Shown: positions 1 to 16,384 of the stretch, piece by piece
Layout of the letters: each line of letters starts with the position of its first letter
Numbering within the stretch: position 1 is the stretch's first letter
Virus record (IMG/VR): IMGVR_UViG_2563367003_000001
Reading direction: 5' to 3' (one strand)
Source: a virus
Taxonomy: Duplodnaviria > Heunggongvirae > Uroviricota > Caudoviricetes
DNA: 16,384 bases
Position numbers and translations under genes: made by a program
Notes under the pieces: model-generated
Told to the model about the DNA's origin: nothing
Databases searched by the model: none
What the model saw: only the letters and a program-made list of their open reading frames with translations

Positions 1-2160
<2,160 letters not shown>

Positions 2161-2236
2161 ACATGAGTCAATGGTGTAAGTATGTGAATGATATAAGAGG
2201 AAAAATAGAGCATAATCTCTACCTGAATGGCTATGT

Positions 2237-2272
2237 TGCAATACACACTGCAATACACACTGCAATACACAG
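2237..2272 (+). repeat. Three tandem 12-bp direct repeats TGCAATACACAC/G (candidate integrase arm-type sites or operator)
   Basis: TGCAATACACAC TGCAATACACAC TGCAATACACAG; related copies near the other end of the element (13310..13350). Confidence 0.8.
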
Positions 2273-2331
2273 AAATCAATGTACAAACCATTCAATTATC
2301 AACCCACAAATGAAGTGAATAAAGATTTGTT

Positions 2332-3093
2332 ATGAATATTATAGATACCCTTCAAAATGACCTAGAGCGCGCAGTAGCGCTTCAAAACATACTAATTGCA
2401 AGAGCTACAGGAGCCCAGGATGAAGCTAATAATGATTATTTGCTTCTAAGAACATATTTCTTACAAAATCCTCCTTTACATCAGCTATTACCAGAGTTTG
2501 TGAGAACTAATCGCTCACTAAAAGAATTTTGGGGATTTATAAAAAAGACTGAAAAGTATGCCCCCCGGAGAGATTTGATTTATAAGGCATTTCAGCCGAT
2601 GCTGGATTATCTAGAAGGGAAAAATAAAGCTCCAGCGGATGAAGACATATCTGATGTATTAAGAAAGTTTAACGAGGATGGAGTCCACGCCGTTTGGATA
2701 AAAGCACTTGAACGGCGCCATACAGATCCGGATGGTGCGATAACCTCCGCAAGAACACTTCTTGAAACAGTTTGCAAACACATTCTTGATGATATGGGCA
2801 TTCAGTATAATAATAAAAATATTGAAATGTCAGAGCTTTATAAAACTCTTTCAAAAGAACTTAACCTATCTGCCGACCAACATACTGAAAATATCTTCAA
2901 ACAAATTCTCGGCGGTTGTTCTGCAGTTGTAAATGGGTTAGGTACTCTTCGTAATAAACTCGGTGATGCACATGGAACGAACAGCTCATCAATTAAGCCA
3001 TCCCCAAGGCATGCCGAACTTGCAGTAAATTTATCAGGCTCAATGGCTCTTTTTTTAATTAACACTTGGTTAAACCTTAAAGATGGGAAATAA
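2332..3093 (+). CDS. HEPN-domain protein with Rx6H motif (Abi_C / abortive-infection-like), 253 aa
   Basis: C-terminal motif GTLRNKLGDAHG fits the HEPN R-x(4-6)-H signature seen in AbiJ/AbiU2/Abi_C proteins. AT-rich gene in the cargo position of the element. Family assignment from motif memory only. Confidence 0.6.
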   Translation: MNIIDTLQNDLERAVALQNILIARATGAQDEANNDYLLLRTYFLQNPPLHQLLPEFVRTNRSLKEFWGFIKKTEKYAPRRDLIYKAFQPMLDYLEGKNKAPADEDISDVLRKFNEDGVHAVWIKALERRHTDPDGAITSARTLLETVCKHILDDMGIQYNNKNIEMSELYKTLSKELNLSADQHTENIFKQILGGCSAVVNGLGTLRNKLGDAHGTNSSSIKPSPRHAELAVNLSGSMALFLINTWLNLKDGK

Positions 3094-3179
3094 CGTATAA
3101 TGAAGTAACACGAGCAATTAGTTAATCATTATACTCAGTCGATTAATTTATTTTGACGACTCGTAAGCAATTTTTCGAT

Positions 3180-3199
3180 GAGGGCGGAACTCCGCCCTC
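3180..3199. repeat. Perfect palindrome GAGGGCGGA-ac-TCCGCCCTC in a 360-bp non-coding spacer
   Basis: 9-bp arms, 2-nt spacer; no flanking U-tract on either strand, so not a canonical intrinsic terminator. Confidence 0.4.
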
Positions 3200-3495
3200 G
3201 GTGCTAACCTATGAGAAACGATATCTCTTCCACCGATACCATAATATTAGGTATCGCGAAGAAGCCCCAAAATCAGTGTGTTGCTTTTACTACCCAAACT
3301 ACCTGTAGTTTCATAGTTGAGTTGCAAATTTGCAATTCGACTACCAGCCACAAGGCGTAAATTTGCGTCGTCAGGAATATCAACGAGTTAGCATATGAAT
3401 AGGCCAAACGGCCACAAACCTCACTTTTGAGGCTTGCTCATTTATTAGCTGGCTATGGTAAGGCCCATTTTGGGGCCGTCGAGAAAATCAAAGAG

Positions 3496-3771
3496 TTATC
3501 GCCGCAGTCTGTCAGGCTTCTTCCACTGGTACGATGCAACGTTCTGGCGTTGTCCCTGCCTCCGCCTAGCTGCCAGTATAGCCAGCACTTTGGTGCGGAT
3601 GACTAAGCAATCCTGTCCGTTCAGTTCTATACCGTCACGCCACATAACCTCAGCAACCACACGAGCGTAATTTTCAGCGGTGACACTGCCCGGCTGCGTG
3701 GCCTGTTCGTCATGCTGGTGGCTGACTCCACCAGCATAGCAGATTACTTTCAGTAGTTCGGATTCAGTCAT
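3496..3771 (-). CDS. Hypothetical protein (91 aa), last gene of the packaging operon downstream of terS
   Basis: ORF 12 bp after the Nu1-like stop, same strand. No recognised similarity; an overlapping plus-strand ORF 3455..3670 is less protein-like. Confidence 0.4.
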   Translation of the reverse strand: MTESELLKVICYAGGVSHQHDEQATQPGSVTAENYARVVAEVMWRDGIELNGQDCLVIRTKVLAILAARRRQGQRQNVASYQWKKPDRLRR

Positions 3772-3782
3772 AGCGTACTACG

Positions 3783-4310
3783 TTACTTATCCTTATTCAG
3801 CTGCAACTTATCCGGTACGTTTCCTGTACTTTCCATCAGATAATCAGCCAGTATCTGTGGGAGGTTGTCAGCAACGCCGGCACTGGCATTACAGGCTTTA
3901 GCCACTTCCTTTTTAAGTCCATCCAGCATAGCCGGAGTCATCTGTGGGAAGCGCCTTTGCATGGTAAGCGGCAGGCTGTCCATGATAGATGAAATCTGAC
4001 TCGCCAGTTTGGAAAGAACATACATACAAAACTCTGTATCAATAACGTCGCCGCGTTCGCGCTCGTTTTTAAGCTCCTGCGCCTCTGCCTGTGCTGTCAG
4101 TAATCTGATCCTGACGCGTAAAAGTTCATCGTCATCAATATCGCCCGTTTCGTTTGTAATCTGGCTGATTGCATTGTTAACCCGATTATCTATTACACTG
4201 GCAACATCATAGAACGCCTCACGGCCCTTACGCTCGACGGGAATCACTCCCCACTTATCGAACGCAGTGGCGCTTACACGGCAACTTTTTGCCATGTTTT
4301 TTTTGTTCAT
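3783..4310 (-). CDS. Small terminase subunit, lambda Nu1-like (satellite-encoded TerS)
   Basis: Middle and C-terminal regions align with lambda Nu1 from memory (AQAEAQELKNERERGDVIDTEFCMYVLSKLASQISSIMDSLPLTMQRRFPQ versus AQADAQELKNARDSAEVVETAFCTFVLSRIAGEIASILDGLPLSVQRRFPE). Sits ~150 bp downstream of the cos-like site, as in lambda. Start chosen at MNKKNMAK; ORF track extends to 4334. Confidence 0.8.
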   Translation of the reverse strand: MNKKNMAKSCRVSATAFDKWGVIPVERKGREAFYDVASVIDNRVNNAISQITNETGDIDDDELLRVRIRLLTAQAEAQELKNERERGDVIDTEFCMYVLSKLASQISSIMDSLPLTMQRRFPQMTPAMLDGLKKEVAKACNASAGVADNLPQILADYLMESTGNVPDKLQLNKDK

Positions 4311-4399
4311 CAGGTGTAATTTCATTGATACCACAACTTAATTACTGTTTCAGGTTGGTGTATTGATTGTATTTTTCTCTTATTATTCATACAGATATA

Positions 4400-4500
4400 G
4401 CGAACAACAAAACCACCACCAGTCCCCTTAAAATGCTCATAAATAGAGAAAACCCGCGCGCCTGACGCCCCGTAGCCTGTCAGATCGCCGGAAAGGACCC
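4400..4500 (-). other. Lambda-like cos site (cosQ-side flank, cosN-equivalent at 4459..4470, start of cosB)
   Basis: Minus strand reads GGGTCCTTTCCGGCGATCTGACAGGCTACG GGGCGTCAGGCG CGCGGGTTTTCTCTATTTATGAGCATTTT. Recalled lambda sequence is ...GGGTCCTTTCCGGTGATCCGACAGGTTACG GGGCGGCGACCT CGCGGGTTTTCGCTATTTATGAAAATTTT. Flanks are near-identical; the central 12-mer differs at ~5 positions. Confidence 0.7.
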
Positions 4501-4526
4501 GCCAGCCAGAGCGGGCCCTAATTTCA

Positions 4527-4910
4527 TCAACCAATCAGCTTATAGCGACCATCCCGTGCATTGCGGCGTACACGCTCAATCTTGAGGCATAGCGCCGCAT
4601 CTGGCTTTTTTGGGACAGGTACGCGGCAATATTCAGAAGCGCGAGGAATATTATTTATCCAGTCGATCACTTCACTTAAATACCAGGCCTTACGCCCTTC
4701 CGTAACCTGCACACGCTCCGGGAACTCTCCACTAGCCTCAAGGTTTAGCAGTGTACGCCGACTCAGGGTTGTAATTTCCATCACCTGATTCATATCAACA
4801 AGGCGCTCGCTTAAACACATTTTGTCAGCGATAGCTTTTAATTCCTCTACAGCTGGATTCGGGTACATCATTTCGGCAATTGGCTTAAGGTCATTGTAAT
4901 CATTCTGCAT
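4527..4910 (-). CDS. AlpA/MerR-like HTH DNA-binding protein (127 aa), between the decoration gene and cos
   Basis: MEITTLSRRTLLNLEASGEFPERVQVTEGRKAWYLSEVIDWINN fits the AlpA-family HTH pattern. RBS GGGGGA 5 nt upstream of ATG at 4910. Function (regulator versus packaging factor) unknown. Confidence 0.6.
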   Translation of the reverse strand: MQNDYNDLKPIAEMMYPNPAVEELKAIADKMCLSERLVDMNQVMEITTLSRRTLLNLEASGEFPERVQVTEGRKAWYLSEVIDWINNIPRASEYCRVPVPKKPDAALCLKIERVRRNARDGRYKLIG

Positions 4911-4921
4911 TGTATCCCCCT

Positions 4922-5263
4922 TTACACACGAGCCAGCGGCTGAACAGAAATACCTGAGCCAACAAACGCGGCAACCTTTGCCGACAGTTCTCTTACAGAC
5001 TCAGGCCAGTTCAGAGCATCAACATTTAAAACACCTGTCTTATAAACCTGTGCCTGTGTTTTTTTCGCTGTGTCGATTTGTACAGCGGAAACATAAACCG
5101 CTTTGCCTGCGCTCGTTCCATCCCATACCACTAGCGCACCAGTTGCATCTTCCTGCATCAGTGGCGTAAACGCAGGTATTACCCCTTTATTGGCTGAAAA
5201 TATCCCCAGCGTAGTAACCAGTGCTTCAGTGCCAGACATGAGTTCAGTGTAATGAGTAGCCAT
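4922..5263 (-). CDS. Head decoration protein, lambda gpD-like (satellite-encoded)
   Basis: 113 aa; AFTPLMQEDATGALVVWDGTSAGKAVYVSAV...QVYKTGVLNVDALNWPES...AFVGSGISV parallels lambda gpD ([31 protein letters not shown]...[18 protein letters not shown]...[10 protein letters not shown]). Strong RBS AAGGGGGAG. Confidence 0.8.
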   Translation of the reverse strand: MATHYTELMSGTEALVTTLGIFSANKGVIPAFTPLMQEDATGALVVWDGTSAGKAVYVSAVQIDTAKKTQAQVYKTGVLNVDALNWPESVRELSAKVAAFVGSGISVQPLARV

Positions 5264-5272
5264 TGCTCCCCC

Positions 5273-6313
5273 TTAGCCAATGCGAACGGTAACAAAACGA
5301 TTGATGCGGGCCGGTATTGGCTGTGGTGCTGAATGTGTCTGCACATATTCAATAGCCGGATCACCAGGCACAATATAGTTTTTCGGTGCAAGTTCGGCTT
5401 TAGTCAGCCCCATTCGGATTAGCTCCGGATCCTGAATACCGCCATAGGCGACAATCCCCTGAAGAGCCGTATTGCCAAGCACCATCAAATCAGGATCAAG
5501 GAAATGTTTTTCAGTTCCGTCCTCGTCGGTATAACGCCCGCTGTATACAACAATCGCAACATCGCCCATATACCCTTTAAAACTCACCGAATCACCAAGG
5601 TCTTTAAGGGCCGTTTCCAGTTCGGAATTAGAACCACGACGGGTATCCAGAGCCTCTTTTATCGCTCTGAATGAACGGTATTTCTTCCATACATTACCGC
5701 CCATAATGATGATATTAGTGACGCCCTCACTAAATTCTGCGTAGCTCTCAATATCATCATTTGGATCAAAAGTTTCTTTATCCTTACCTGACCACTCAGC
5801 ACCGCCAGACTGAGTGATGATATTTTGTGGTTTAATATTCCAGTCCAGCTCATAACGTTCAATACCATCGCCCTCAATGATATTTTTCCCCGTTGTGATT
5901 GCCTGAACGGCAAGCCATTCAATACGTGCACGAATAGCTTTAGCCTGATTTACAATCGCCTGTTTAACTTTAATATTACGCGCTCCAAAAGCATTGTATT
6001 GCTCAGGTGATACACCAGCAGGGCGCACAGCTAACTTATTTGGATCAATGCTGCTTTTCGGCTTCATATAGCCTGGACGAATTGTTTTTGATTCGTACCC
6101 TTCGTCACGTGAAACTTTACTACCCACCATAGGAGAACAAAACGCTGCAATTGGGATATTTGGATCGTCGATTGTATCAAGAATAATATCGCGCGATTCA
6201 AACATTACCGAGCGAGTAAAAAACAAACTGGTAAACAACGCATTTAGTTGTTTTTGTACATCTACAGCATTAACCACCTGTACAAGCTGGGTAGGCGAAT
6301 ATAAATCAACCAT
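5273..6313 (-). CDS. Major capsid protein, lambda gpE-family homolog (divergent, satellite-encoded)
   Basis: Shares blocks with lambda gpE: ITQSGGAEWSGKDKETFDPNDDIESYA, RRGSNSELETALKDLG, GDVAIVVYSG, GYMKPK. Start set at MVDLYSPTQ (RBS AAGAGG); ORF track extends upstream to 6487. Confidence 0.85.
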   Translation of the reverse strand: MVDLYSPTQLVQVVNAVDVQKQLNALFTSLFFTRSVMFESRDIILDTIDDPNIPIAAFCSPMVGSKVSRDEGYESKTIRPGYMKPKSSIDPNKLAVRPAGVSPEQYNAFGARNIKVKQAIVNQAKAIRARIEWLAVQAITTGKNIIEGDGIERYELDWNIKPQNIITQSGGAEWSGKDKETFDPNDDIESYAEFSEGVTNIIIMGGNVWKKYRSFRAIKEALDTRRGSNSELETALKDLGDSVSFKGYMGDVAIVVYSGRYTDEDGTEKHFLDPDLMVLGNTALQGIVAYGGIQDPELIRMGLTKAELAPKNYIVPGDPAIEYVQTHSAPQPIPARINRFVTVRIG

Positions 6314-6487
6314 ACGCATCCTCTTTGCATTCATTAAAAATAATTGTGGATATATGCTATCACCGATATTTGTCATGCGAATACATGCAACCGAGTGCAA
6401 TGTTGTATAAAGTTTTGGGATGACAACTTCAGCACGGATAATTAGTGTTAATATCTTCACTCCCTTTGGTCTGGATTTATGTAGCAT

Positions 6488-6521
6488 GCCGGAAAATTTA
6501 TTTTTTTTCCGGCCTTTTTTA
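6488..6521 (+). terminator. GC-stem hairpin with T-tract (plus-strand orientation) between ssb and the capsid gene
   Basis: GCCGGAAAA-tttatttt-TTTTCCGGC followed by CTTTTTTA on the plus strand; on the minus strand the hairpin is not followed by a U-run. Confidence 0.4.
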
Positions 6522-6531
6522 TTGGCAATAT

Positions 6532-6981
6532 TTAAAACGGAATATCATCTCCCCATTGCTCATTATCTCCCACTGGTGGATGGCTTCCTTGCTGATCTGC
6601 CTGTTGTTTTGCTCTGTTCAGTGCGTCAGTAGCCTGACCCTGTTGATCTTTTTTGCCGCCCGGTCGCACCGTTCGCGCACTGATTACGCTGTCTGCGATA
6701 ACCTGCCAGCCCTGCCGCGTTTCACCGTTCTGTCCAGTCCACTGGCTCACCTGCATATTACCCGCCACGCTCAGGAGTTCGCCTTTGTGATGCTTTGCCA
6801 GCGTGTCGGCTTGTCTGCCAAACGCCAGCACAGATAACCACATCGTCGCCGTTCCGTCATCTGCCTGGCTGCATGGCAAAGATACCGCCATCCGTGCCAG
6901 TGTCATGGGTGTTCCCTTGCTGGTATGTTTTACCTGTGGGTCGTCCACCAGCCGCCCGTAAGCTGCTATTTGCGCCGTCAT
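6532..6981 (-). CDS. ssb: Single-stranded DNA-binding protein (SSB) with C-terminal acidic tip ...WGDDIPF
   Basis: 149 aa; OB-fold-like N-terminus (AYGRLVDDPQ...), Gln/Gly-rich linker, and the DDIPF tail characteristic of bacterial/phage SSBs (E. coli SSB ends DDDIPF). Confidence 0.8.
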   Translation of the reverse strand: MTAQIAAYGRLVDDPQVKHTSKGTPMTLARMAVSLPCSQADDGTATMWLSVLAFGRQADTLAKHHKGELLSVAGNMQVSQWTGQNGETRQGWQVIADSVISARTVRPGGKKDQQGQATDALNRAKQQADQQGSHPPVGDNEQWGDDIPF

Positions 6982-6992
6982 GCTGCCTGCTC

Positions 6993-7235
6993 TCAGGACT
7001 TAATATTGATGGTTGTCACTTCCTCCGCTTCGGCAATCTCCCGTTCGGTCAGCGTGGCAAAGTTTGCAGCCGCCGTTGTCATGAATGCGCTTATCAGTTC
7101 GGGATGTGCTTTCGCGTATCCTTCCCCGGCGTTGCGGTCTATTGCCTTAATCGCCACCCTTAGCCAGTGTTCAGCCATATCAAGGGCGCGGTAATGTGGC
7201 TTTATATGTTTGTTCAGTTTTCCTGATGTGTGCAT
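6993..7235 (-). CDS. Hypothetical protein (80 aa) immediately downstream of the iteron origin
   Basis: ORF with GAGGGGG RBS ~10 nt upstream; no recognised domain. Confidence 0.45.
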   Translation of the reverse strand: MHTSGKLNKHIKPHYRALDMAEHWLRVAIKAIDRNAGEGYAKAHPELISAFMTTAAANFATLTEREIAEAEEVTTINIKS

Positions 7236-7280
7236 TTTTATTTTTACCCCCTCGTTTAAAAAGTTTTTTGTGCACCACCA

Positions 7281-7510
7281 CCTTGTCTACCTTGTCTACC
7301 TGATTAGTTATCAGGCCAGTAATGGCGCGGGTTTCAGGGAGGTAGACAGCCCCAAATAGCTGTCTACCTCATCTCTACCCGTCTCCTTACCTGTCTACAA
7401 AAATGGGTAGATAAGGTAGATAACAGGTAGACAGTGAAAAATAGTTATCTACCTGCATTAATACATTGAAATAAAAGTATTTTATTTCAGTCAGGTAGAC
7501 AAGGTAGATA
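7281..7510. repeat. Replication origin: iteron array (>=11 copies of GGTAGAYA/TRTCTACC in both orientations) plus AT-rich segment
   Basis: CTTGTCTACCTTGTCTACC (7282..7300), GGTAGACAG (7341), TGTCTACC (7361), CTGTCTAC (7391), GGTAGATAAGGTAGATAACAGGTAGACAG (7407..7434), TATCTACC (7447), GGTAGACAAGGTAGATAAC (7493..7511); AT-rich 7457..7490. Lies directly 3' of the helicase gene. Confidence 0.8.
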
Positions 7511-7524
7511 ACCATTGCCATTTT

Positions 7525-9276
7525 TTATAAAAACGCATCGCAATCATCAGTAGTCGTTGCGTTGGTCTGCGTGACTCCCTTAACTTTTCGCGTAATATAT
7601 TCATATCCGTAAACTTTCGCCGCTGACCTCATAGCCTTTCCGAACTCATTCACGCTCAAACATTTCCCCTTTCCTGTATATGCCATGAAGGCCATATAGA
7701 CACGGTAAAGGCTGTTTCTGGTCGTGTACTTCACGGTGTCACCACCACCGCCCATCATTAGCCCACGAGCTTCCTCCAGAAACTCCAGCGCCGCGCAAAG
7801 CTCAACAACCGGATCCGTTTGCTGCTTTATTGCCAGAGCTTCATCACCGTCACGCTGTTCCAGTAATAAAGCCCGTGCCTTTTCAGGGTCAGCAAAATTA
7901 GCCAGCAAGCGGCGGATAATTACGGGGATTTCTGCCGCTATCTTTTCCGGTAATTCCTTGTCTTTTTCGTCCTCCCTTACAATGTTGTCGAACCGGAAAA
8001 TCACCCGACGGCGTGACACACCTCCGGCCCGTTCGGTAAAGATCATCGGGTCGTTATTGGTTGCCAGTACCACCGCCCTTATTATCGTCGTGAATCGCTT
8101 CTCATATTTCGGGTTAATTTCAACGGGATCGCCTCCCGTGATTTTCTTGATGCCCGTGCCTTCCCCCGTATATTTCGGCTGATCGGCAAGGACGATAAGA
8201 CGACTCCCGACAACCTGCGCACGCCCTCCTGCATCATCGAGTGATGTCATCTCTGCGCTTACGGTGTTCTGTTTGCCAGCAAGCAGGGTGGCAATATGGG
8301 TAAATGTACTCTTACCGCTTCCCCCGTCTCCGGTGGCCTCAATGAACATCTGCCAGTCGTACCGGTTCGCCATAATCATGTACAGCGCGGCACATATACG
8401 CATCATCTTGCGCGGGTCTTTTCCGGCTGCGTGCTCAAGCCATTTATGAAAGTTTGGCGCGTTATCGCGGATGTTCTCCCCTGGTGCTGGTGGCGTGTAC
8501 TCAATGCCGTTGTGCGTGGTGATCCAGTTCTCCGGCGTGTGCGGGGAAAATTCCCCCGTTTTCAGGTCAAGCGCACCATTGGCGAACGGCAGCAAATCGC
8601 CGGACGGCTCGCCCATTGGTTCGGCAATAACTTTTAACGCTTCAACGGCGTTATTGATCACGCGTTTGCTGAAAGTGGCCCTGTGCTCTGAATAGATCGC
8701 CACCATTTCGCGGCTCAGCTCCATTGTGCTGATCGGACACCATACCCCGCCGCGCCATACGTGAACGATTTCACTTTCCGGATGCACACAAACGCCATCA
8801 AAGCGCTCGGCAAGCAGCTGCGCGCGCTCACTGTCTGCCATCTGTGAAAGTTGCGCCTTTTGCTTCGTCGGAAGATTAAGCACCAGGCTTTCCCCACGCT
8901 CGCATTCCTCTTTGAGTCGCGGCAACTGGTCGGATAAATCCACTGGGCTGGTGTCAGTAATCCCCGCGTATTCGTGTACGGTCTTCACTCCAGCCACAGC
9001 CAGTAACGTAACAATCTGCGTCATGCTGTGCTCTGTGATATGTCCTGCGCGGTAAACACGCACACACTGACGATCTTCATCAATGATCCGGTAATCGGTG
9101 ATGTTTTTCAGTTGCTCATCAGCCAACACGACAGGCGGCACATCGTCGGCGGCAATATGTTTACCCGCCCATTCCTGCCACTCTTTCGCATGGCTCCACG
9201 CATCACTACCTGCAAAGATGATTATCTCTGTCAGTCTGTCGCGTGGCTGTTTTTTTAAGTTCGGTGCCAGTTTCAT
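7525..9276 (-). CDS. Replication initiator: SF3 helicase of the D5 / P4-alpha family (primase-helicase-like), 583 aa
   Basis: Walker A GDGGSGKST and surrounding D5_N/P4-alpha C-terminal-like sequence; followed by the iteron origin. The N-terminal ~250 aa may be a primase-like domain (not verified). Confidence 0.75.
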   Translation of the reverse strand: MKLAPNLKKQPRDRLTEIIIFAGSDAWSHAKEWQEWAGKHIAADDVPPVVLADEQLKNITDYRIIDEDRQCVRVYRAGHITEHSMTQIVTLLAVAGVKTVHEYAGITDTSPVDLSDQLPRLKEECERGESLVLNLPTKQKAQLSQMADSERAQLLAERFDGVCVHPESEIVHVWRGGVWCPISTMELSREMVAIYSEHRATFSKRVINNAVEALKVIAEPMGEPSGDLLPFANGALDLKTGEFSPHTPENWITTHNGIEYTPPAPGENIRDNAPNFHKWLEHAAGKDPRKMMRICAALYMIMANRYDWQMFIEATGDGGSGKSTFTHIATLLAGKQNTVSAEMTSLDDAGGRAQVVGSRLIVLADQPKYTGEGTGIKKITGGDPVEINPKYEKRFTTIIRAVVLATNNDPMIFTERAGGVSRRRVIFRFDNIVREDEKDKELPEKIAAEIPVIIRRLLANFADPEKARALLLEQRDGDEALAIKQQTDPVVELCAALEFLEEARGLMMGGGGDTVKYTTRNSLYRVYMAFMAYTGKGKCLSVNEFGKAMRSAAKVYGYEYITRKVKGVTQTNATTTDDCDAFL

Positions 9277-9572
9277 TTTTTGCCCCTGAATGCGTTAATC
9301 ATGCTTTTCATTTTCTGGATGTTTCCCCGCGCTTTTTCCCTGCTGATGGGCTTACTGCGGGGTGCGGCATATACCAGGGAAAAATCACGCCGGAACTGAT
9401 AAACAGGCATCACGCAGTCATAGCTATACCCCTCACGACGGTAAGTGATGCGCCGTTCTGCCACGCCTTTAATCGTTACCGTGCCGCCGTATTTATCGCG
9501 GTAAATATCGCCGTTCATAAATTCAGGCCGAGCGGGGCCGCTGGCAATAAAGCCAGAATTTTTCATTTCCAT
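9273..9572 (-). CDS. Hypothetical protein (99 aa), translationally coupled to the helicase gene (ATGA overlap)
   Basis: ORF in operon context; no recognised motif. Confidence 0.45.
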   Translation of the reverse strand: MEMKNSGFIASGPARPEFMNGDIYRDKYGGTVTIKGVAERRITYRREGYSYDCVMPVYQFRRDFSLVYAAPRSKPISREKARGNIQKMKSMINAFRGKK

Positions 9573-9589
9573 ATTATTTATTCCTCGAC

Positions 9590-9811
9590 TTAACTCGACT
9601 TATTTGATAGCAGGGCACTATTTATTGCGTCATTGAGTTTTTCTGCTGCTTCATCAATAAGTGACAACAGGCCATAAGCAATATTTGCATCTTCATTGTC
9701 ATTTATGCAATCAAGCCACATATTTAATATTGCTTTTGCTGAATTATTTAAAGTTAATGAACTTTCTGCACATGCTAACAATTTAAAAAAGACTTCCCGT
9801 TCTGTATTCAT
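9590..9811 (-). CDS. Hypothetical protein (73 aa), AT-rich
   Basis: ORF in operon context; composition differs from neighbours. Confidence 0.4.
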   Translation of the reverse strand: MNTEREVFFKLLACAESSLTLNNSAKAILNMWLDCINDNEDANIAYGLLSLIDEAAEKLNDAINSALLSNKSS

Positions 9812-10003
9812 TTAATCCCCCACCAGCTTACTTTCTTCCTCAATCAAAAAACTAGCGACACTTCCCGAAAGACGCGCCAGTAGGCTCGCCAGTGCGGATA
9901 TATCAGCATCTGTAATTTTGTTCGGGTATACCTCAAGAAGGCGGCAAATAATTTCTGTCTGGTGCGCACGTTCAGCGGCTTCGTGTAATGTGATTTCCTG
10001 CAT
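9812..10003 (-). CDS. Hypothetical protein (63 aa)
   Basis: ORF abutting the next gene with no spacer (stop/start coupling). Confidence 0.4.
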   Translation of the reverse strand: MQEITLHEAAERAHQTEIICRLLEVYPNKITDADISALASLLARLSGSVASFLIEEESKLVGD

Positions 10004-10188
10004 TAATGCACCTCTTTTAATTCATACACTGCTGAAATAATGACTTGTGATAAGCCATATTCTGATGATTCGCTTCTCACCGCAGCAATAGCCGTCTGAA
10101 CATTAACAGCCTTCACATTCTGAGCGATACCAATTGTGTGGCCTATTGGGTTAACAGCTCGGGCAAATACACGGAAGGTTTTAAGCAT
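10003..10188 (-). CDS. Hypothetical protein (61 aa)
   Basis: Start ATG overlaps the stop of the upstream 65-aa ORF (ATGCTTAA). Confidence 0.4.
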   Translation of the reverse strand: MLKTFRVFARAVNPIGHTIGIAQNVKAVNVQTAIAAVRSESSEYGLSQVIISAVYELKEVH

Positions 10189-10378
10189 GACTCACTCCCT
10201 GGCGGATTTTTGCAGCGAATACAGCAACACAACCGGACGGGCAACGGCTACGCGCTTCGCGTTCCGTCCAGGCGGTTACGTGGATGATTTGAGATTCTCC
10301 GGCACTCAGTGCCAGAAAACGCCACACAAAGGCCGTTTGTGTGTGTACAAGGTGTGGTATATGATTTACAGCAACCAT
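10181..10378 (-). CDS. Hypothetical protein (65 aa), first gene of the leftward operon
   Basis: Strong RBS AGGAGCCGTT-ATG. It is the 3' part of the 243-aa ORF 10181..10912 in the track; only the portion downstream of this RBS is considered real. Confidence 0.5.
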   Translation of the reverse strand: MVAVNHIPHLVHTQTAFVWRFLALSAGESQIIHVTAWTEREARSRCPSGCVAVFAAKIRQGVSHA

Positions 10379-10390
10379 AACGGCTCCTAG

Positions 10391-10568
10391 TTTACGTTGT
10401 TGGTTAGACGCCCCGTATGTGTTCCCAGCACTGCGGGGCGTTGCTCTTTGTATTTCAACAATTCTTTCGGTGTGTTTCATGTTATGAGCGCATGAAACAC
10501 ACGTCAAGGCTTTTTGTATTTCTTTTTTTGTGTATACTGAAACACACCGATGATTAGGAGTTTCAGAA
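10391..10568. promoter_or_regulatory. Divergent promoter/operator region between the leftward operon and the rightward RHH gene
   Basis: Inverted repeat GACGCCCCG...CGGGGCGT (10408..10440); palindrome TGTGTTTCATG...CATGAAACACA (10472..10500); second direct copy TGAAACACACC (10539..10549); -10-like TATACT (10531..10536); RBS AGGAG before ATG at 10569. Confidence 0.55.
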
Positions 10569-10874
10569 ATGGCAACGGCTAACAAAAACGCAAAATCACA
10601 ACTGACAACTGTCAGAGTCCCACTAGATGTTATGCAAGGGATGGAATCCGTTAAGCTGGACGGTGAAAGCAATGCCGGATTTATCGTAACCGCCATGCGC
10701 GGTGAAATCGCCCGCCGCCAGGCAGAAGGAAGCGGAGAAAATCCCCTCGTGTCTTCACTGGATGCCTTAGCTAAGGTCGAACAAATCGGCATCAAGGCAG
10801 CGGAGGAAATCGGGCAACTCGTAGCCGTCGCTCGTGAAGAACTCCAGCGGCGTAAAGCCAAAGAATCTGAATAA
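10569..10874 (+). CDS. Putative ribbon-helix-helix-type transcriptional regulator (101 aa)
   Basis: N-terminal beta-strand/helix pattern (TTVRVPLDVMQGMESVKLD...NAGFIVTAMRGEIARR) plus coiled C-terminus. AGGAG RBS. Divergent from the replication operon. Fold assignment is inference. Confidence 0.5.
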   Translation: MATANKNAKSQLTTVRVPLDVMQGMESVKLDGESNAGFIVTAMRGEIARRQAEGSGENPLVSSLDALAKVEQIGIKAAEEIGQLVAVAREELQRRKAKESE

Positions 10875-11224
10875 TTAGTATCAGCGCCGTGATGTGAGTA
10901 ACTACGGCGCATTGCTATGTAAATACTGGCAATAAACAGAAAAGGTAGTTCTACTCCGAATAATTTTATCTGACACTACTCCTGAACTAACATGCGCTTA
11001 TCTTACAGGATATAAATATAAATCCATAAAATCACGATTAAATAAAGTCGCTCCAAACATAAACCACACCCAACGCTTAACAAGATAGCAACAAACAGGT
11101 AAATAACTTGCAGAAATATTTATCGCAAGGATTATCATTATTAATGACAAATCACTTTACCAAGTCATTCCCCTCTCTTATCATAAAGAGAAAGTAATAA
11201 ATAAGTTAAGGGAGTTAGAATGCT

Positions 11225-11761
11225 ATGAATCTAAAAAAAATAGCCACAAACACAAAAAACAAGATAACAGAAACATTTAATAAACTTATATTAGAGGCAT
11301 CTAAAACCCCCACACAAGATGAAATTAAAATACTTGAGAGAAGGAGTAAGAAGTTTAATTACTCCTTTTTCTCATACGCAGTCACAGGAGCTATAATAGT
11401 TTTTTGCTCTCAACCATTAATTAAATACGCAAACCCAATACTTATTTTATTGAGTGGTCTGTTACTGTCTATCATCATTATCATTCTCAGAATGATTTAT
11501 ATTTCACAAGCGAATGCATCATGGACAACCAAAAAACGCTCACATGTACTAGTTCATTTTCTTTCTGCATGTTTCATAGCATCAACATTGACGTTGCTAT
11601 ATCAGGCTTACGATAATAACATCACACACAAATTGTACTGTAAAAATATACAACAACTTATTGAAAAAAGGATAGAAACAGAAAAAAACATCAGCATATT
11701 CAGTGGGATGCAATGCACCCCGGTATATGATTACTCTTTATTTGGATTTAATCTCTTATAA
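11225..11761 (+). CDS. Small membrane protein (178 aa, ~3 predicted TM helices), very AT-rich cargo gene
   Basis: Hydrophobic segments FFSYAVTGAIIVFCSQPLI, ILILLSGLLLSIIIIILRMIYI, VLVHFLSACFIASTLTLLY. Strongly AT-rich versus the flanks. No recognised family. Confidence 0.55.
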   Translation: MNLKKIATNTKNKITETFNKLILEASKTPTQDEIKILERRSKKFNYSFFSYAVTGAIIVFCSQPLIKYANPILILLSGLLLSIIIIILRMIYISQANASWTTKKRSHVLVHFLSACFIASTLTLLYQAYDNNITHKLYCKNIQQLIEKRIETEKNISIFSGMQCTPVYDYSLFGFNLL

Positions 11762-11770
11762 AGAATGTTA

Positions 11771-11804
11771 TTACTGATTTGAGTACAAATTCTCAAATCA
11801 GTAA
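11771..11804. terminator. Bidirectional intrinsic terminator hairpin between convergent genes
   Basis: 13-bp perfect stem TTACTGATTTGAG / CTCAAATCAGTAA with 8-nt loop, A/T-rich flanks on both sides; lies between the plus-strand membrane-protein gene and the minus-strand alpA gene. Confidence 0.65.
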
Positions 11805-11830
11805 TTCATAATATTTTATTCTGAGATAAT

Positions 11831-12058
11831 TTAAACTACCCACTCACCTCGAATCCATGCCTGCACTTCTGAAAGACGATATGCAACAGCAGTGGAACCA
11901 ATCTTGATCCGCTTAGGAAATTTTCCTTCCTTCTCCAGCTTCCAGCGTGTGCTGTTCGCAAGAGTGGTTAGCTCCCGACATTCTTTCTCACGGATCATTC
12001 GGTCAATGTTAGGAATGTACTCCAGACCCTTTTTATCAACAATTGCCATTTTTTTCAT
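11831..12058 (-). CDS. alpA: AlpA-family HTH protein (excisionase/Vis-like regulator), 75 aa
   Basis: IREKECRELTTLANSTRWKLEKEGKFPKRIKIGSTAVAYRLSEVQAWI fits the AlpA pattern; immediately downstream of the integrase gene. Confidence 0.8.
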   Translation of the reverse strand: MKKMAIVDKKGLEYIPNIDRMIREKECRELTTLANSTRWKLEKEGKFPKRIKIGSTAVAYRLSEVQAWIRGEWVV

Positions 12059-12059
12059 G

Positions 12060-13295
12060 TTAACCAGCCTTTTGTTTGAGGATTGTCACTTTTGAATCAG
12101 CACCTGCGATGCTATTGAGATATGTAGTCCAGAGTTCCAGAGCATCCAGTTTTTTAGCCATAAACTTACTCCGGTTGTAAACACCTGCCACGCCAGGTAG
12201 CGCATGGCCTAACAGTTGTTCTACTACATAAAATTCAACACCGAGATCACTTAGATGAGTAGATAGCGTTCTTCTAAGGTCGTGTAGTGACCATTGTTTT
12301 TCATGGCCCAAACGTTTACCGATTTTCCCCCCAATCTTGCTTACGCTTTCTCTAATTCGCAGACTTCCCAGCACATAACCAGTATGTTTTGTCTCTTCGT
12401 GAACATCCGTTACCCACTGTCGTAGAATTTCAGGTACTGGTCTGACGATTTCAACACCAGTTTTTGAGTGATCTTTTGGTACAGTCCAAACCCAACTTTC
12501 GAGATCCCATTCGCTCCATTCTGATAATCGGGCTTCACTCATTCGACATCCAAATACTGTACAAAGCACAAACATTTTTCGCGTGTATTCAGACATTAGT
12601 TTTAAATCAGGCTCGACAAAAATTGCCTTCCAGAGCTGGCCGAGTTCGGCTTCATCCAGAACCCGATCCCGCTTACCTGCAATCTGCCCCACATCACTCA
12701 TGCGCAAATCCTTTAAAGCATCACACGTCGCGTACTGGCGTACCCGACAAAAACGAAGAGCTAATTTAGTGTCAGAAAAAACATACGCCGCCATAACTGG
12801 TGCATTACGTTTAATTCGGTCAAAACAGTCCAGCCATTCATATAGGTGAGTGTCATTTACGGGCAAATGACCGATATAGGGAAAGATATGCTTTCGAAAT
12901 CTGCCAAGCGTTACAGCATGAGTTTTACGACGCACCTTACAGTAATTTTCATACCAGTAATTTAGTGCATCCTCCACTGTAACCGGCTTTAAGCGTTCTT
13001 CAGCCTGAATCTTAATCTGGATACGCGGATCACGTTTGTCAGCCAACCAACCACGGCACTCGTCGCGCTTTTCCCTTGCCTGTTTGAGTGACATATCAGG
13101 ATATTTACCCAACGTTAGCCAGACCGGAGCAGCCCGGCCACCTGCTAACCTGTAGAAGAAAACAAAGCTCACAGCCCCTTTAGTACTCACACGAATAGAA
13201 AGCCCCTTTCCATCAGCAATGGTGATCTGCTTTTCTCTGGGTTTCCCCAGATATCCTTTAAGCGCTTTGTCGCTCAGTTTGTTCTCGCCAGCCAT
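12060..13295 (-). CDS. int: Tyrosine site-specific integrase, P4-type
   Basis: N-terminal arm-binding-like region (LSDKALKGYLGKPREKQITIADGKGLSIRVSTKGAVSFVFFYR), catalytic-box residues (HDLRRT, LLGHA...GVYNRS). Start set at MAGENKLSDK; ORF track extends to a GTG at 13346. Confidence 0.9.
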   Translation of the reverse strand: MAGENKLSDKALKGYLGKPREKQITIADGKGLSIRVSTKGAVSFVFFYRLAGGRAAPVWLTLGKYPDMSLKQAREKRDECRGWLADKRDPRIQIKIQAEERLKPVTVEDALNYWYENYCKVRRKTHAVTLGRFRKHIFPYIGHLPVNDTHLYEWLDCFDRIKRNAPVMAAYVFSDTKLALRFCRVRQYATCDALKDLRMSDVGQIAGKRDRVLDEAELGQLWKAIFVEPDLKLMSEYTRKMFVLCTVFGCRMSEARLSEWSEWDLESWVWTVPKDHSKTGVEIVRPVPEILRQWVTDVHEETKHTGYVLGSLRIRESVSKIGGKIGKRLGHEKQWSLHDLRRTLSTHLSDLGVEFYVVEQLLGHALPGVAGVYNRSKFMAKKLDALELWTTYLNSIAGADSKVTILKQKAG

Positions 13296-13309
13296 TTTTA
13301 GCCCCAAAA

Positions 13310-13350
13310 AGCAATACAAGCTGCAATACAGAGATGATTGCAACACACAG
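13310..13350 (+). repeat. Direct repeats related to TGCAATACA (AGCAATACA, TGCAATACA, TGCAACACA) upstream of int
   Basis: Same motif and orientation as the 3x12-bp array at 2237..2272 at the opposite end of the element. Confidence 0.7.
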
Positions 13351-13457
13351 ATAACGAGGAAAATTCAGTGAAAGCACCAGATAAACTTATTCTTTATTAT
13401 CAAAAGATTAAGTGTAAAAACCAGCAACTACACGAAAGCCTCAGAAAGCCATGCTAA

Positions 13458-13703
13458 GTGCTTCGGCTTGACATATCCCGGCGTAAATTCAGAGGTGGAG
13501 CCGCCACGGGAGCGGATAACCTCACCGGAAACAATCGGCGAAACGTACAGCGCCATGTTTACCAGCCCCGGAATTTGTGAGAGATAGACTTTCTCCGTGG
13601 TGAAGGGATAGCTCTCACGGAAAAAGAGACGCAGAAACAGCGGATCAAACTTAAATTTCTGCTCATTTGCCGCCAGCAGCTGGGCGGTTGTGTACATCGA
13701 CAT
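13458..13703 (-). pseudogene. E: Lambda-like major capsid protein E, N-terminal fragment (residues 1 to ~91), interrupted by the inserted element
   Basis: MSMYTTAQLLAANEQKFKFDPLFLRLFFRESYPFTTEKVYLSQIPGLVNMALYVSPIVSGEVIRSRGGSTSEFTPGYVKPKH matches the lambda gpE N-terminus; the frame then reads 9 unrelated codons (LAWLSEAFV) into the element and stops at 13428. Confidence 0.9.
13459..13468. repeat. Right junction core (attR-like): TGCTTCGGCT
   Basis: Identical to 2151..2160; lambda E sequence continues on the high-coordinate side. Confidence 0.7.
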
Positions 13704-13758
13704 AAAAAAATCCCGTAAAAAAAGCCGCACAGGCGGCCTTTAGTGATGAAGGGTAAGG

Positions 13759-14100: not shown

Positions 14101-15432
14101 TTATACCGGTAAAGCTTCAGGTGTATTAAGTAATTCTTTATTGGTATCAGATGCCAGGTTACCTGCAGCCAGCGGTGCCGGTGCACCCTGCATCAGACGA
14201 TCCAGCGCAGTGTCACTGCGCGCCTGTGCACTCTGTGGTGCTGCAGCCAGAATGCGGCGGGCCGTTTCCACGGTCATTCCGGGGGTTTCTGCCAGAACGC
14301 GCGCCTGTTCTTCGCGTCCGTGAGCCTCCTCACAGTTGAGGATCCCCATAATGCGGCTGTTTTCTGCCGCAACCGCTGCGGTGATCTGCGCGTTCACGTC
14401 CGGCTGCGCCGCGCTGGCGTTTTCGCCCTCCGTCGCTGGCACCACCTCAGTAACGTCAGCCTGCGAAGCAGTGGCTGAAACAGTTGTTGATTGAGTCTCT
14501 TTGGTCATTCGCCCTCCTGAGAGACGGGATTTATGTGCATCCAGTGCATCACGCATGACGGTGATCGCATCGGTGCTGTTAACAAGTTCATCAGCCAGTC
14601 CGGCATCAATGGCCTCCTGACCGCTGTACACTGCAGCCTCGGTATCCAGCACAGCCTGCACGGACAGGCCGGTATATGCCGACACCTTCTGCGCAAACAT
14701 CCGGCGGGTTGCGTCCATCCGGGACTGCAGTGTCTCCCGGACGTCATCCGGAAGATGGCTGTAAGGATTGCCATCCACCTTATGGCTGCCGCTGTAAATC
14801 AGCGTGATTTCCACGCCCTGTTTCTCCAGGGCAGCACCGTAATTACTGTGAGCCATCATGACGCCGATGGAGCCTGTCCGGGCGGTCTGCGTGACCAGAC
14901 GCCGGGAGGCGGCACTGGCAAGCAGCTGACCTGCACTGCAGTTCATGTCGTTGGCCAGCGCCCATACCGGTTTTATGTCACGCACACGGGCGATGATGTC
15001 AGCGCAGTCAAATGCCCCCGCCACCATTCCGCCTGGCGTATCCATATCGAGCAGAATGCCGTCCACCATCGGGTCGCTGGCGGCCTGTTGCAGACGGGCG
15101 ATAATGCCGTTGTAACCGGTCATCCCCGAGTACGGCTGCAGCGCCCGCGTCCGGCTGACCAGCGTGCCGGACACCGGCAGCACGGCGATGCCGTTCATGA
15201 CCTGATAACTGCGGGCCTGTCGTGGTCCGTCATCATCACCGGATAATGCCAGCGTCGCGAGTGCCTCCTGGGCAGTCAGGCTGTCGCCGGACACCGCATC
15301 CGTCAGGCGGCTGATCCCAAGCTGGCCTGCAAGCGCACAAAAGAAAACCCGCGCATAGGCGGGTTCAAGCATCAGCGGCTCATTAAAGGCCATGCTGGCA
15401 ATATGCGGGAGATTACGCAGCTCTGCTGTCAC
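14101..15432 (-). CDS. C: Capsid assembly protease C (lambda gpC)
   Basis: Translation from a GTG at 15432 (VTAELRNLPHIASMAFNEPLMLEPAYARVFF...) matches lambda gpC; preceded by GAGGAGGAGGA. The ORF track's upstream extension (to 15546) overlaps B and is not used. Confidence 0.9.
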   Translation of the reverse strand: MTAELRNLPHIASMAFNEPLMLEPAYARVFFCALAGQLGISRLTDAVSGDSLTAQEALATLALSGDDDGPRQARSYQVMNGIAVLPVSGTLVSRTRALQPYSGMTGYNGIIARLQQAASDPMVDGILLDMDTPGGMVAGAFDCADIIARVRDIKPVWALANDMNCSAGQLLASAASRRLVTQTARTGSIGVMMAHSNYGAALEKQGVEITLIYSGSHKVDGNPYSHLPDDVRETLQSRMDATRRMFAQKVSAYTGLSVQAVLDTEAAVYSGQEAIDAGLADELVNSTDAITVMRDALDAHKSRLSGGRMTKETQSTTVSATASQADVTEVVPATEGENASAAQPDVNAQITAAVAAENSRIMGILNCEEAHGREEQARVLAETPGMTVETARRILAAAPQSAQARSDTALDRLMQGAPAPLAAGNLASDTNKELLNTPEALPV

Positions 15433-15718
15433 TCTCCTCCTCCTCTGTTGATTGTCGCAGCCCGGATTCAAATGCCGCAGCCGCCCAGGCGGGCGGTTTA
15501 AGACCGGCCGCGCGGCGCTCCATCGTTTCACGGACCTGCTGGGCAAAAATTTCCTGATAGTCGTCGCCGCGTTTTGCGCACTCTTTCTCGTAGGTGCTCA
15601 GTCCGGCTTCTATCAGCATCACCGCTTCCTGTACTTCTTTCAGACCATCGATAGCCATACGACCGGAGCCTATCCAGTCACAGTTCCCCCAGGCGCTGCG
15701 GGCTTCCTGAAAGCTGAA
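14101..15718 (-). CDS. nu3: Scaffolding protein Nu3, in-frame nested within the 3' part of C
   Basis: Met at C codon 239 (…QSRMDATRRMFAQ…), the same position I recall for the lambda Nu3 internal start; nesting is established lambda biology. Confidence 0.6.
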
Positions 15719-16384
15719 GCGCGCTTTTGAAGGTAACGTCACCACGCGGCGAACGATGGCCTCTTCCAGCCAGCACAGAAACATCTGGCTCGCCTGACGG
15801 GATGCGACGAATTTTCGCCGCCCCATAAAGTGCGCCCACGACTCGTTCGCGCTGGCCCGTGCCGTGGAGTAGCTCATCTGGGCGTAATTCCGGGAAAGCT
15901 GCTCATACGAGACACCCAGCCCGGCAGCGATATACCGCAGCAGTGACTGCTCAAACACGGAGTAGCCGTTATCCGTGTCCTGAGCCGTCTGCAGGTTCAG
16001 TGAGTCCCCCGGCATCAGGTGTGGCACTTTTGCGCCTCCCAGCCGGACCGGTGCTGCGGCGTAATACGCGGCAATTTCACCAATCCAGCCGGTCAGCTTG
16101 TCCCGCTGCTCCTGACTGTTCGCGCCCAGAATAAAATCCATCGCTGACTGCGTATCCAGCTCACTCTCAATGGTGGCGGCATACATCGCCTTCACAATGG
16201 CGCTCTGCAGCTGCGTGTTCTGCAGCGTGTCGAGCATCTTCATCTGCTCCATCACGCTGTAAAACACATTTGCACCGCGGGTCTGCCCGTCCTCCACGGG
16301 TTCAAAAACGTGAATGAACGAGGCGCGCCCGCCGGGTAACTCACGGGGTATCCATGTCCATTTCTGCGGCATCCAGCCAGGATA
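15413..16384 (-). CDS. B: Portal protein B (lambda gpB), C-terminal part; 5' end lies beyond the window
   Basis: Translation reads to ...FESGLRQSTEEEESDSRAA and overlaps the C start; ORF continues to the window edge. Confidence 0.88.
   Translation of the reverse strand, partial: YPGWMPQKWTWIPRELPGGRASFIHVFEPVEDGQTRGANVFYSVMEQMKMLDTLQNTQLQSAIVKAMYAATIESELDTQSAMDFILGANSQEQRDKLTGWIGEIAAYYAAAPVRLGGAKVPHLMPGDSLNLQTAQDTDNGYSVFEQSLLRYIAAGLGVSYEQLSRNYAQMSYSTARASANESWAHFMGRRKFVASRQASQMFLCWLEEAIVRRVVTLPSKARFSFQEARSAWGNCDWIGSGRMAIDGLKEVQEAVMLIEAGLSTYEKECAKRGDDYQEIFAQQVRETMERRAAGLKPPAWAAAAFESGLRQSTEEEESDSRAA

Follow-up and report, generated by a model that had tools for sequence, protein, structure and literature searches.

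A probable iteron-type replication origin of the EcCICFT073 family in a satellite embedded in a lambda-like capsid gene

In the window (the whole stretch of 16,384 nucleotides analysed here), the helicase gene is directly followed on its 3′ side by an intergenic gap that is very probably where vegetative replication starts in a phage-inducible chromosomal island (PICI), a phage satellite of the Gram-negative EcCICFT073 family. We observed repeats in this gap, their conservation among E. coli PICIs, homology of the gap to DNA in which a tested origin is reported, and domain homologies of the adjoining helicase. The origin belongs to a known kind, already described and tested in the close relative EcCICFT073, and adds in itself nothing new. 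The origin also contains a G+C-rich core whose sequence recurs at origins served by unrelated initiators.

Repeats and AT-rich stretch in the gap

The features of the gap and of the surrounding element are listed in Table 1. The repeat array begins 14 bp past the helicase stop codon (7525-7527) and fills the gap to the next ORF. GGTAGAYA and its complement gave 10 exact matches in the 16.4-kb window, every one of them inside 7284-7510. Dinucleotide-preserving shuffles (n = 200) gave a mean of 0.51 matches per window and a maximum of 4. When one mismatch was allowed, two further iterons were added within the cluster, at 7372-7379 and 7392-7399. With flanking bases included, the iteron consensus is RGGTAGAYAR. 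The iterons occur in both orientations across the array. The two terminal doublets are mutually inverted, 7283-7303 pairing with 7491-7511 as a 21-nt inverted repeat with 95% complementarity. The AT-rich stretch is flanked by opposed iterons, a minus-strand copy at 7446-7453 on one side and the plus-strand doublet 7494-7510 on the other, and more iterons extend out to 7284. Just 5 of the 16349 stretches of 36 bp in the whole sequence have a higher A+T content than this best 36-bp stretch (83%).

These results can be set against a first-pass annotation made from the letters and open reading frames. It had described both orientations, tandem doublets and triplets, and an AT-rich stretch of about 35 bp; all were recovered (doublets at 7284/7293 and 7494/7503, triplet at 7406/7415/7426, AT-rich DNA at 7455-7490). 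Its count of at least 11 copies of an 8-bp core holds only if the two one-mismatch copies are included, which gives 12; the exact count is 10. The gap had rightly been placed 3′ of an SF3 helicase gene, whereas its length, given as 260 bp, is 289 bp.

Consensus scans of the gap (7236-7524) found no sigma-70-like promoter and no terminator. An RNA gene or riboswitch was also considered for the gap and dropped, as the Rfam search returned nothing better than E 0.07. A tRNA search of the window found none.

Table 1. Features of the origin gap, the helicase gene and the satellite (positions in the window)
Feature	Position	Strand	Remarks
Whole satellite, about 11.3 kb	about 2151-13468	minus	10-bp direct repeat TGCTTCGGCT at 2151-2160 and 13459-13468
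Nu1-like small terminase (TerS)	3783-4334	minus	Pfam/NCBIfam/PHROGs
AlpA-domain protein	4527-4910	minus	Pfam/NCBIfam/PHROGs
Lambda-D-like decoration protein	4922-5263	minus	Pfam/NCBIfam/PHROGs
Lambda-E-like capsid protein	5273-6487	minus	Pfam/NCBIfam/PHROGs
Single-strand DNA-binding protein (SSB), satellite-encoded	6532-6981	minus	Pfam, NCBIfam, PHROGs
80-aa ORF, function unassigned, phrog_1231	6993-7235	minus	First gene past the origin in all relatives
Intergenic gap with probable replication origin	7236-7524	no strand	289 bp, helicase stop codon to 80-aa ORF start
Leader and ribosome-binding site (GAGGGGG) of 80-aa ORF	7236-7262	minus	78% of columns invariant; outside the repeat array
Distal-end iteron doublet	7284-7291 and 7293-7300	minus	GGTAGACA twice, 9-bp spacing
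G+C-rich non-iteron core, 26 bp	7314-7339	plus	GGCCAGTAATGGCGCGGGTTTCAGGG; 73% of columns invariant among E. coli PICI origins vs 16% for other spacer
30-bp palindromic unit	7340-7369	both	Iterons 7341-7348 (+) and 7361-7368 (-), 12 bp between; repeat families D1, I10
Two degenerate iterons	7372-7399	minus	7372-7379 GGTAGAGA, 7392-7399 TGTAGACA
Iteron triplet	7406-7433	plus	At 7406, 7415 and 7426; spacings 9 and 11 bp
Second 30-bp palindromic unit	7425-7454	both	Inverted iterons 7426-7433 and 7446-7453, 12 bp apart
Iteron at left edge of AT-rich stretch	7446-7453	minus	Pairs with 7426-7433
AT-rich stretch, proposed DNA unwinding element	7455-7490	no strand	83% A+T
Iteron doublet adjoining helicase stop codon	7494-7510	plus	7494-7501 and 7503-7510, 9-bp spacing
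Initiator-helicase, 583 aa ("Pri-Rep" of Gram-negative PICIs)	7525-9276	minus	D5/P4-type SF3
C-terminal winged-helix domain, residues 487-578, proposed iteron reader	7543-7818	minus	1KA8 (P4 alpha origin-binding domain), E 2.3e-7, 33 bits
N-terminal 145-aa helicase module, TOPRIM-like fold	8842-9276	minus	Appears to lack acidic catalytic residues
DUF4222 protein	9273-9572	minus	Pfam/NCBIfam/PHROGs
Tyrosine integrase	12060-13346	minus	Pfam/NCBIfam/PHROGs

The element and its insertion site

The lambda-like gpE is split: it breaks off after ...YVKPKH (at about 13459) and resumes with EVNPQM... (at about 2146), and the 10-bp repeat TGCTTCGGCT stands at both junctions. Therefore, the satellite has inserted in the capsid gene of a lambdoid prophage. 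Beyond the satellite, lambda-like portal and S49 protease genes (14101-16372) were found in addition to the two gpE halves. As in other Gram-negative PICIs, int, the AlpA-domain gene and the helicase, capsid and decoration genes are all on one strand, the minus strand, and the size of 11.3 kb falls within the range of 10-20 kb. A short HTH-type gene beside int (11831-12058) had no family match. The element is an 11capE-type PICI embedded in its helper's capsid gene E, and this type is already published: 11capE is a helper-embedded PICI at site E:Phage_cap_E:80, co-oriented, with a 10-bp att identity block (PMC10111431). E. coli strain 104 carries a 100% identical copy of the gap; in its PGAP annotation, the element is flanked on either side by split capsid pseudogenes.

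Conservation of the gap among E. coli PICIs

The gap was matched in 567 of 5426 complete E. coli genomes, in 402 of them over at least 80% of its length, and copies at least 99% identical were present in 75 complete genomes. All 567 matches are chromosomal and none carries an annotated feature over the gap. Among phage records, none was similar to the gap.

The match in EcCICFT073, the prototype PICI, carried by CFT073, has 75% identity over 98% of the gap; on one side it has pri-rep (annotated as "DNA primase family protein") and on the other an 85-aa ORF, with SSB next in line. The two elements have the same flanking order (DUF4222, helicase, gap, 80-85-aa ORF, SSB). In each, the origin follows the helicase gene directly on its 3′ side, and the AT-rich stretch separates the last iteron from the doublet on the stop-codon side; their helicases are 82% identical. 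They differ in the N-terminal 140 helicase residues, which diverge, and in a DnaA-box-like TTATCCAC of the EcCICFT073 gap that is missing from the gap of this element. Moreover, this element sits in its helper's capsid gene, has terS and is without a lambda cosN.

In the available part of Fillol-Salom et al. 2018 (ISME J, PMC6092414), the origin of Gram-negative PICIs is assigned to the DNA that follows the replication gene directly on the 3′ side, and those of E. coli PICIs are depicted as an AT-rich region between two iteron sets. The same part reports that a pri-ori plasmid of EcCICFT073 was maintained in DH5alpha at restrictive temperature, whereas its delta-ori and delta-pri versions were not. 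Going by its position 3′ of pri-rep, the homologue of the gap would overlap the segment concerned in that delta-ori version, as far as this part of the paper describes it. The first-pass annotation had read the region as a rep-ori arrangement of the SaPI/PICI type. This assignment is supported by the identity to the gap 3′ of EcCICFT073 pri-rep, by the shared gene order and by matches of the helicase to 7OLA and 1KA8.

Eight gaps from different E. coli PICIs were aligned and the percentage of invariant columns was determined for each kind of feature. In this alignment 71% of the columns are invariant in the 6-bp GGTAGA iteron cores, as compared to 33% in the AT-rich stretch, 16% in other spacer sequence and 0% at the two trailing iteron bases. 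Of the 12 iteron positions, 10 carry GGTAGA in EcCICFT073 as well as in other E. coli PICIs. The positions of the terminal doublets (7284-7300 and 7494-7510) are kept in all eight origins. The degenerate iteron at 7372 corresponds to a conserved GGTAGA site in the relatives, whereas the site at 7392 is not conserved. In one subgroup (L006-L008), GGTAGAGG or GGTAGATG replaces GGTAGAYA. The helicases of this subgroup carry N543A and G546S in the C-terminal domain, which is otherwise almost invariant. The joint change of iteron and protein is suggestive of co-variation and represents a single evolutionary event.

Domains of the helicase

The helicase contains the Pfam domains D5_N (residues 152-281), SF3 P-loop DUF5906 (315-416) and Pox_D5 at the C-terminal side (517-575). 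It also matches TIGR01613 (P4-family primase C-terminal region) and phrog_864. The protein is 81-82% identical to that of EcCICFT073 and to other E. coli PICI homologues, and its residues 194-441 match SaPI5 PriRep5 (7OLA, E 4e-14).

No Pfam match was obtained with the first 145 residues. Homologues of this N-terminal module were all from E. coli or Shigella and were fused to D5_N or AAA_25 helicases. One AAA_25 protein, encoded beside a CGCGCA-type origin, resembles the present helicase in the N-terminal module only. The N-terminal domain has the look of an inactive TOPRIM exchanged between helicases of two classes, and this degenerate module may be new.

Repeats downstream of distant helicase relatives

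A scan of 185,579 species genomes for relatives of the helicase gave 34 loci, and the 420 bp downstream of each helicase gene were inspected. A Shigella relative has GGTAGA 11 times in this region. The clearest layout with doublets flanking an AT-rich stretch was found in a Morganella relative (52% identity), where TGTTCAT occurs 11 times; the doublets lie at the same relative positions as here, though with another iteron sequence. Downstream of a Pectobacterium relative (41% identity) we found TGTTCACC and variants of it, and downstream of an Aeromonas relative (49% identity) CAGTGCC repeats. Most Pantoea and Erwinia relatives (44-45% identity) have no obvious repeat array within the 420 bp. 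Therefore, either the layout is not universal in the wider family or some origins lie elsewhere, as in P4.

The C-terminal 120 residues of these relatives were compared with 1KA8. Scores were 97 bits for Morganella, 96 bits for Pectobacterium and 45 bits for Aeromonas, as against 33 bits for the helicase of this window with its GGTAGAYA repeats. The type I iteron of P4 is reportedly TGTTCACC; a literature search for the P4 iteron sequence gave no match. Similarity of the C-terminal region to P4 alpha is greatest where the repeats resemble those of P4. Overall, the repeat sequence appears to follow the C-terminal domain of the helicase, as expected if this domain reads the iterons. Homology and co-variation over about four lineages point to this domain as the probable iteron-binding part.

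Comparison with SaPI and P4

In SaPIs, a C-terminal winged helix of Rep binds penta- or hexanucleotide iterons directly downstream of rep; the origin has an AT-rich centre with at least two opposed iterons on each side; binding and melting are ATP-independent, and hexamers self-load (Qiao et al. 2022, PMC9371898). The present origin resembles those of SaPIbov1, SaPI1 and SaPI5 in its place directly downstream of the helicase gene and in its short iterons (5-6 bp core), which stand in both orientations around an AT-rich region. PriRep5 and the present helicase are homologous in their core, and a winged helix is likewise predicted at the C-terminus. In contrast, there is no similarity at the DNA level, the host is here a Gram-negative bacterium and the genes of this island run one way. 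A G+C-rich core is present in this origin, whereas none is mentioned for SaPIs in the SaPI literature consulted.

With P4, the helicase shares the TIGR01613 family and a C-terminal domain homologous to that of P4 alpha. By analogy, the short 8-bp iterons would be recognised by the helicase itself, as in P4. The iteron of this element is GGTAGAYA and not the TGTTCACC reported for P4; P4-like iterons were found in the more distant relatives only, namely TGTTCACC in Pectobacterium and TGTTCAT in Morganella. No second cis site comparable to crr was seen, with no exact GGTAGAYA outside 7284-7510 in a window that holds the whole element. P4 alpha has 777 amino acids, about 200 more than the present helicase, in which the N-terminal TOPRIM-like domain appears inactive.

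A G+C-rich core also found at other origins

The consensus of the 26-bp core is CCAG-NNN-TGGCGCGG-N-TT-NN-AG-S-G. Within the window, its 14-mer CCAGTAATGGCGCG occurs once only. The Aeromonas relative carries this 14-mer without change, at the same position and orientation with respect to the helicase gene and together with different iterons. An exact scan of IMG/VR with this 14-mer gave at least 120 loci, of which 113 could be scored. Among the matches listed, the 14-mer lies inside an array (at least six copies of some 6-mer) in 47% of these 113, as compared to 1.5% for control positions in the same loci. About half of the listed matches have no iteron context and are probably due to chance.

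The arrays around the 14-mer fall into at least seven repeat families (GGTAGA, CCGCACA, TTGTCCAACGG, GTGACA, GTACCGAATCGGTAC, TTGACAC and CGCGCA). Replication genes in the vicinity encode either Phage_rep_O with a DnaB-like helicase, the array then being inside the O gene as in lambda, or AAA_25 helicases. Among the matches listed, a D5-type helicase is found with GGTAGA arrays only. The CCGCACA-type core is located in the O genes of CUS-3, HF4s, many Stx2a-converting phages and Salmonella phages. The P22 origin was also checked and lacks the core, which is therefore not universal among O-type origins.

A plasmid search gave close variants of the core in phage-plasmids of the P1-like kind. One of them, GGCCAGAAATGGCGCGGCTTACAGCG of pO111_2, has five iterons on one side and, on the other, a region rich in GATC that includes a DnaA box. 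Through homology to pO111_2, the core could be traced to the annotated oriR of P7, where GGCCAGACGTGGCGCGGCCTGCAACG is located between RepA iteron 14 and the first Dam site. The core of this element, GGCCAGTAATGGCGCGGGTTTCAGGG, aligns with both sequences in the same polarity. The order, with iterons on the 5′ side of the core and AT-rich or unwinding DNA on the 3′ side, is common to P7/P1-type, O-type and PICI origins. The P1/P7 oriR, which comprises RepA iterons, the G+C-rich stretch, GATC heptamers and DnaA boxes, differs in having an unrelated initiator (RepA); Dam methylation and DnaA are both required at P1 oriR. Core and unwinding region are directly adjacent in P1, whereas iterons intervene here.

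The stretch that aligns with the core is the "G+C-rich stretch" of the P1 origin core. This P1 stretch reportedly serves as a spacer, its length being more important than its sequence, and perhaps as a clamp limiting strand opening. According to a review, the role of such G+C flanks "has remained unclear" (PMC5043065). Our literature search for the core motif found no paper containing it. Compared by eye with consensus sequences, the core did not fit a sigma-54 promoter, an IHF site, a DnaA box, a dif site or a Ter site.

The initiators at core-bearing origins are of the PICI D5/SF3 type (Escherichia, Aeromonas), the lambda-O type (Stx2a, CUS-3 and related phages), the AAA_25 type and the P1/P7-like RepA/RepB type. 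A role as a pure spacer does not account for conservation of the core at the sequence level over these unrelated initiators. It is conceivable, and we suggest it only tentatively, that the core is a functional module of one polarity, independent of the initiator and shared by origins with unrelated initiators. A shared core of this kind may be new.

Alternative readings of the array

In the only induction study of 11capE, made with NRG857c, two of three repeats gave attP:attB ratios of about 1, and replication of the composite preceded excision of the satellite (PMC10111431). With such ratios, most copying of the element may be passive, as part of its helper. The gap would then be a true origin by descent that is little used, the element being mainly a passenger of lambdoid helper replication and the iterons at most a back-up. 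In the same study the evidence for replication after excision is weak or ambiguous, and all that its authors conclude about replication by 11capE itself is that it "may well also contribute"; the third repeat gave a ratio of 1.6-1.9 (PMC10111431). We consider such disuse unlikely, since the helicase ORF is intact, iteron cores and G+C-rich core are under clear purifying selection as compared to the spacers, and nearly unchanged copies (at least 99% identical) persist in 75 complete genomes.

The array could also serve transcription. A conserved leader and ribosome-binding site follow it directly and, as no terminator is predicted, read-through transcription would cross the array. Plasmid iteron arrays often autoregulate too. 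The repeats might accordingly be mainly operators, through which the helicase or another satellite regulator (AlpA, an HTH protein) controls transcription into the 80-aa ORF, SSB and capsid genes. This is quite improbable: the gap has no sigma-70-like promoter, the iteron sequence appears to track the C-terminal domain of the helicase and not AlpA, and the ori at the equivalent position of EcCICFT073 was needed in cis for plasmid replication (available part of PMC6092414). Moreover, a regulatory role could coexist with origin function and need not replace it. The element also encodes a Nu1-family TerS, and lambda cosB consists of repeated R sites (PMC6739421), so that the array might be taken for a packaging signal with cosB-like R sites for the small terminase. 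We rejected this reading, which has hardly any likelihood, since no cosN-like sequence is found near the array, the terS gene is 2.9 kb off, relatives without terS carry the same iterons, and the two exact lambda cosN sequences of EcCICFT073 are 3-4 kb from the homologous gap.

Proposed mechanism and significance

The gap is best read as a replication origin, and for binding, melting, self-loading and primer source a scheme can be drawn by analogy. After induction, the 583-aa SF3 helicase would bind about ten AGGTAGAYAR iterons through its C-terminal winged helix. The opposed iterons beside the 36-bp AT-rich stretch 7455-7490 would position helicase oligomers there. The AT-rich DNA would melt, and the helicase would need no separate loader but load itself, as SaPI Rep proteins are proposed to do. 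The satellite SSB would then coat the unwound strands, while priming and synthesis would be carried out by host enzymes. Because the N-terminal TOPRIM-like module appears to be without catalytic residues, the host primase DnaG would be the likely primer source. The G+C-rich core 7314-7339 would be a further part of the origin, perhaps a spacer, a clamp on strand opening or a site for a host factor.

As annotation, the origin assignment is useful for E. coli genomes, because none of the 567 that match the gap annotates any feature over it. The inactive-looking TOPRIM raises the question of what primes PICI replication. If the core is indeed a module shared by origins with unrelated initiators, its conservation would point to a host factor used in common or to a structural role tied to the sequence, unlike the sequence-tolerant spacer of P1. 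The core would then link PICI, lambdoid-O, AAA_25 and P1-type origins, and would offer one target of 15-26 bp for a host-factor or DNA-mechanical role in origin opening.

A G+C-rich core shared by origins with unrelated initiators

The iteron-containing origin lying 3′ of the SF3 helicase gene encloses a G+C-rich, non-iteron core, GGCCAGTAATGGCGCGGGTTTCAGGG, that is conserved in the E. coli PICIs. At least seven other repeat types form iteron arrays that contain or adjoin this core, with its polarity unchanged. The initiators of the origins sharing it are unrelated (lambda-O type, AAA_25, P1/P7 RepA and pO111_2 RepB-type). In P1/P7 oriR, it is the 'G+C-rich stretch' that aligns with the core. 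A literature search for the motif returned no paper containing it.

In the origins of EcCICFT073 and of two other PICIs, a DnaA-box-like sequence, TTATCCAC, is found between two iterons. Because this sequence is absent from the equivalent site of the window origin (about 7352-7360), it is probably dispensable and not essential.

Features of the element, its helper prophage and related loci
Feature	Locus	Position	Strand
G+C-rich core GGCCAGTAATGGCGCGGGTTTCAGGG, within origin	window	7314-7339	+
G+C-rich core	L012	3105-3118	
G+C-rich core	L152	about 3790-3815	
G+C-rich core	L164	1799-1825	
G+C-rich core	L167	403-428	
DnaA-box-like TTATCCAC, EcCICFT073 gap	L001	9116-9124	
Codons 543 and 546 of the helicase gene	window	about 7639-7650	-
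80-aa ORF, phrog_1231	window	6993-7235	-
Element's own E-like capsid gene	window	5273-6487	
Element's own D-like decoration gene	window	4922-5263	
Nu1-like small terminase gene	window	3783-4334	-
Abi_C-domain gene	window	2332-3093	+
10-bp att repeat	window	2151-2160 and 13459-13468	
gpE fragments	window	13428-13730 and 1370-2146	-
Rfam sRNA isrC (full-length match, 150 bits)	window	1068-1190	-
IS, rve-family transposase	window	9-1055	-

Proteins associated with the origin

Three related E. coli PICIs (L006-L008) carry iterons ending in GG or TG, as compared to YA. Their helicases show the substitutions N543A and G546S in a C-terminal winged-helix domain that is otherwise almost invariant. On the basis of this single lineage, N543A/G546S may be an iteron specificity switch.

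Throughout the EcCICFT073-type PICI family, the first gene past the origin is always the 80-aa ORF, located between the origin and SSB. A Pfam search with the window's copy gave no hit; it may encode a replication accessory protein.

Insertion in the helper capsid gene and variable cargo

The element splits gpE and has the layout already described for '11capE', a helper-embedded PICI (PMC10111431). The published 11capE is said to be without a Nu1-like small terminase gene, whereas the window's copy has one. The lambda cosN, GGGCGGCGACCT, occurs twice, exactly, in EcCICFT073; in contrast, no match with up to two mismatches was detected across the whole element in the window.

Just past the capsid gene fragment stands an IS, which the isrC match adjoins. 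In the related prophage of E. coli strain 104, the position occupied by this IS holds the FI packaging gene. The helper prophage may be defective.

Apart from its variable region, the strain 104 element is 99.9% identical to that of the window; strains vary over some 20% of its length, at window 2152-4438. The Abi_C-domain gene adjoins the att end farthest from int, on the opposite strand, and strain 104 carries DUF262 and HEPN genes in its place (L002 5071-6787). This site beside the att end looks like a variable defence-cargo slot.
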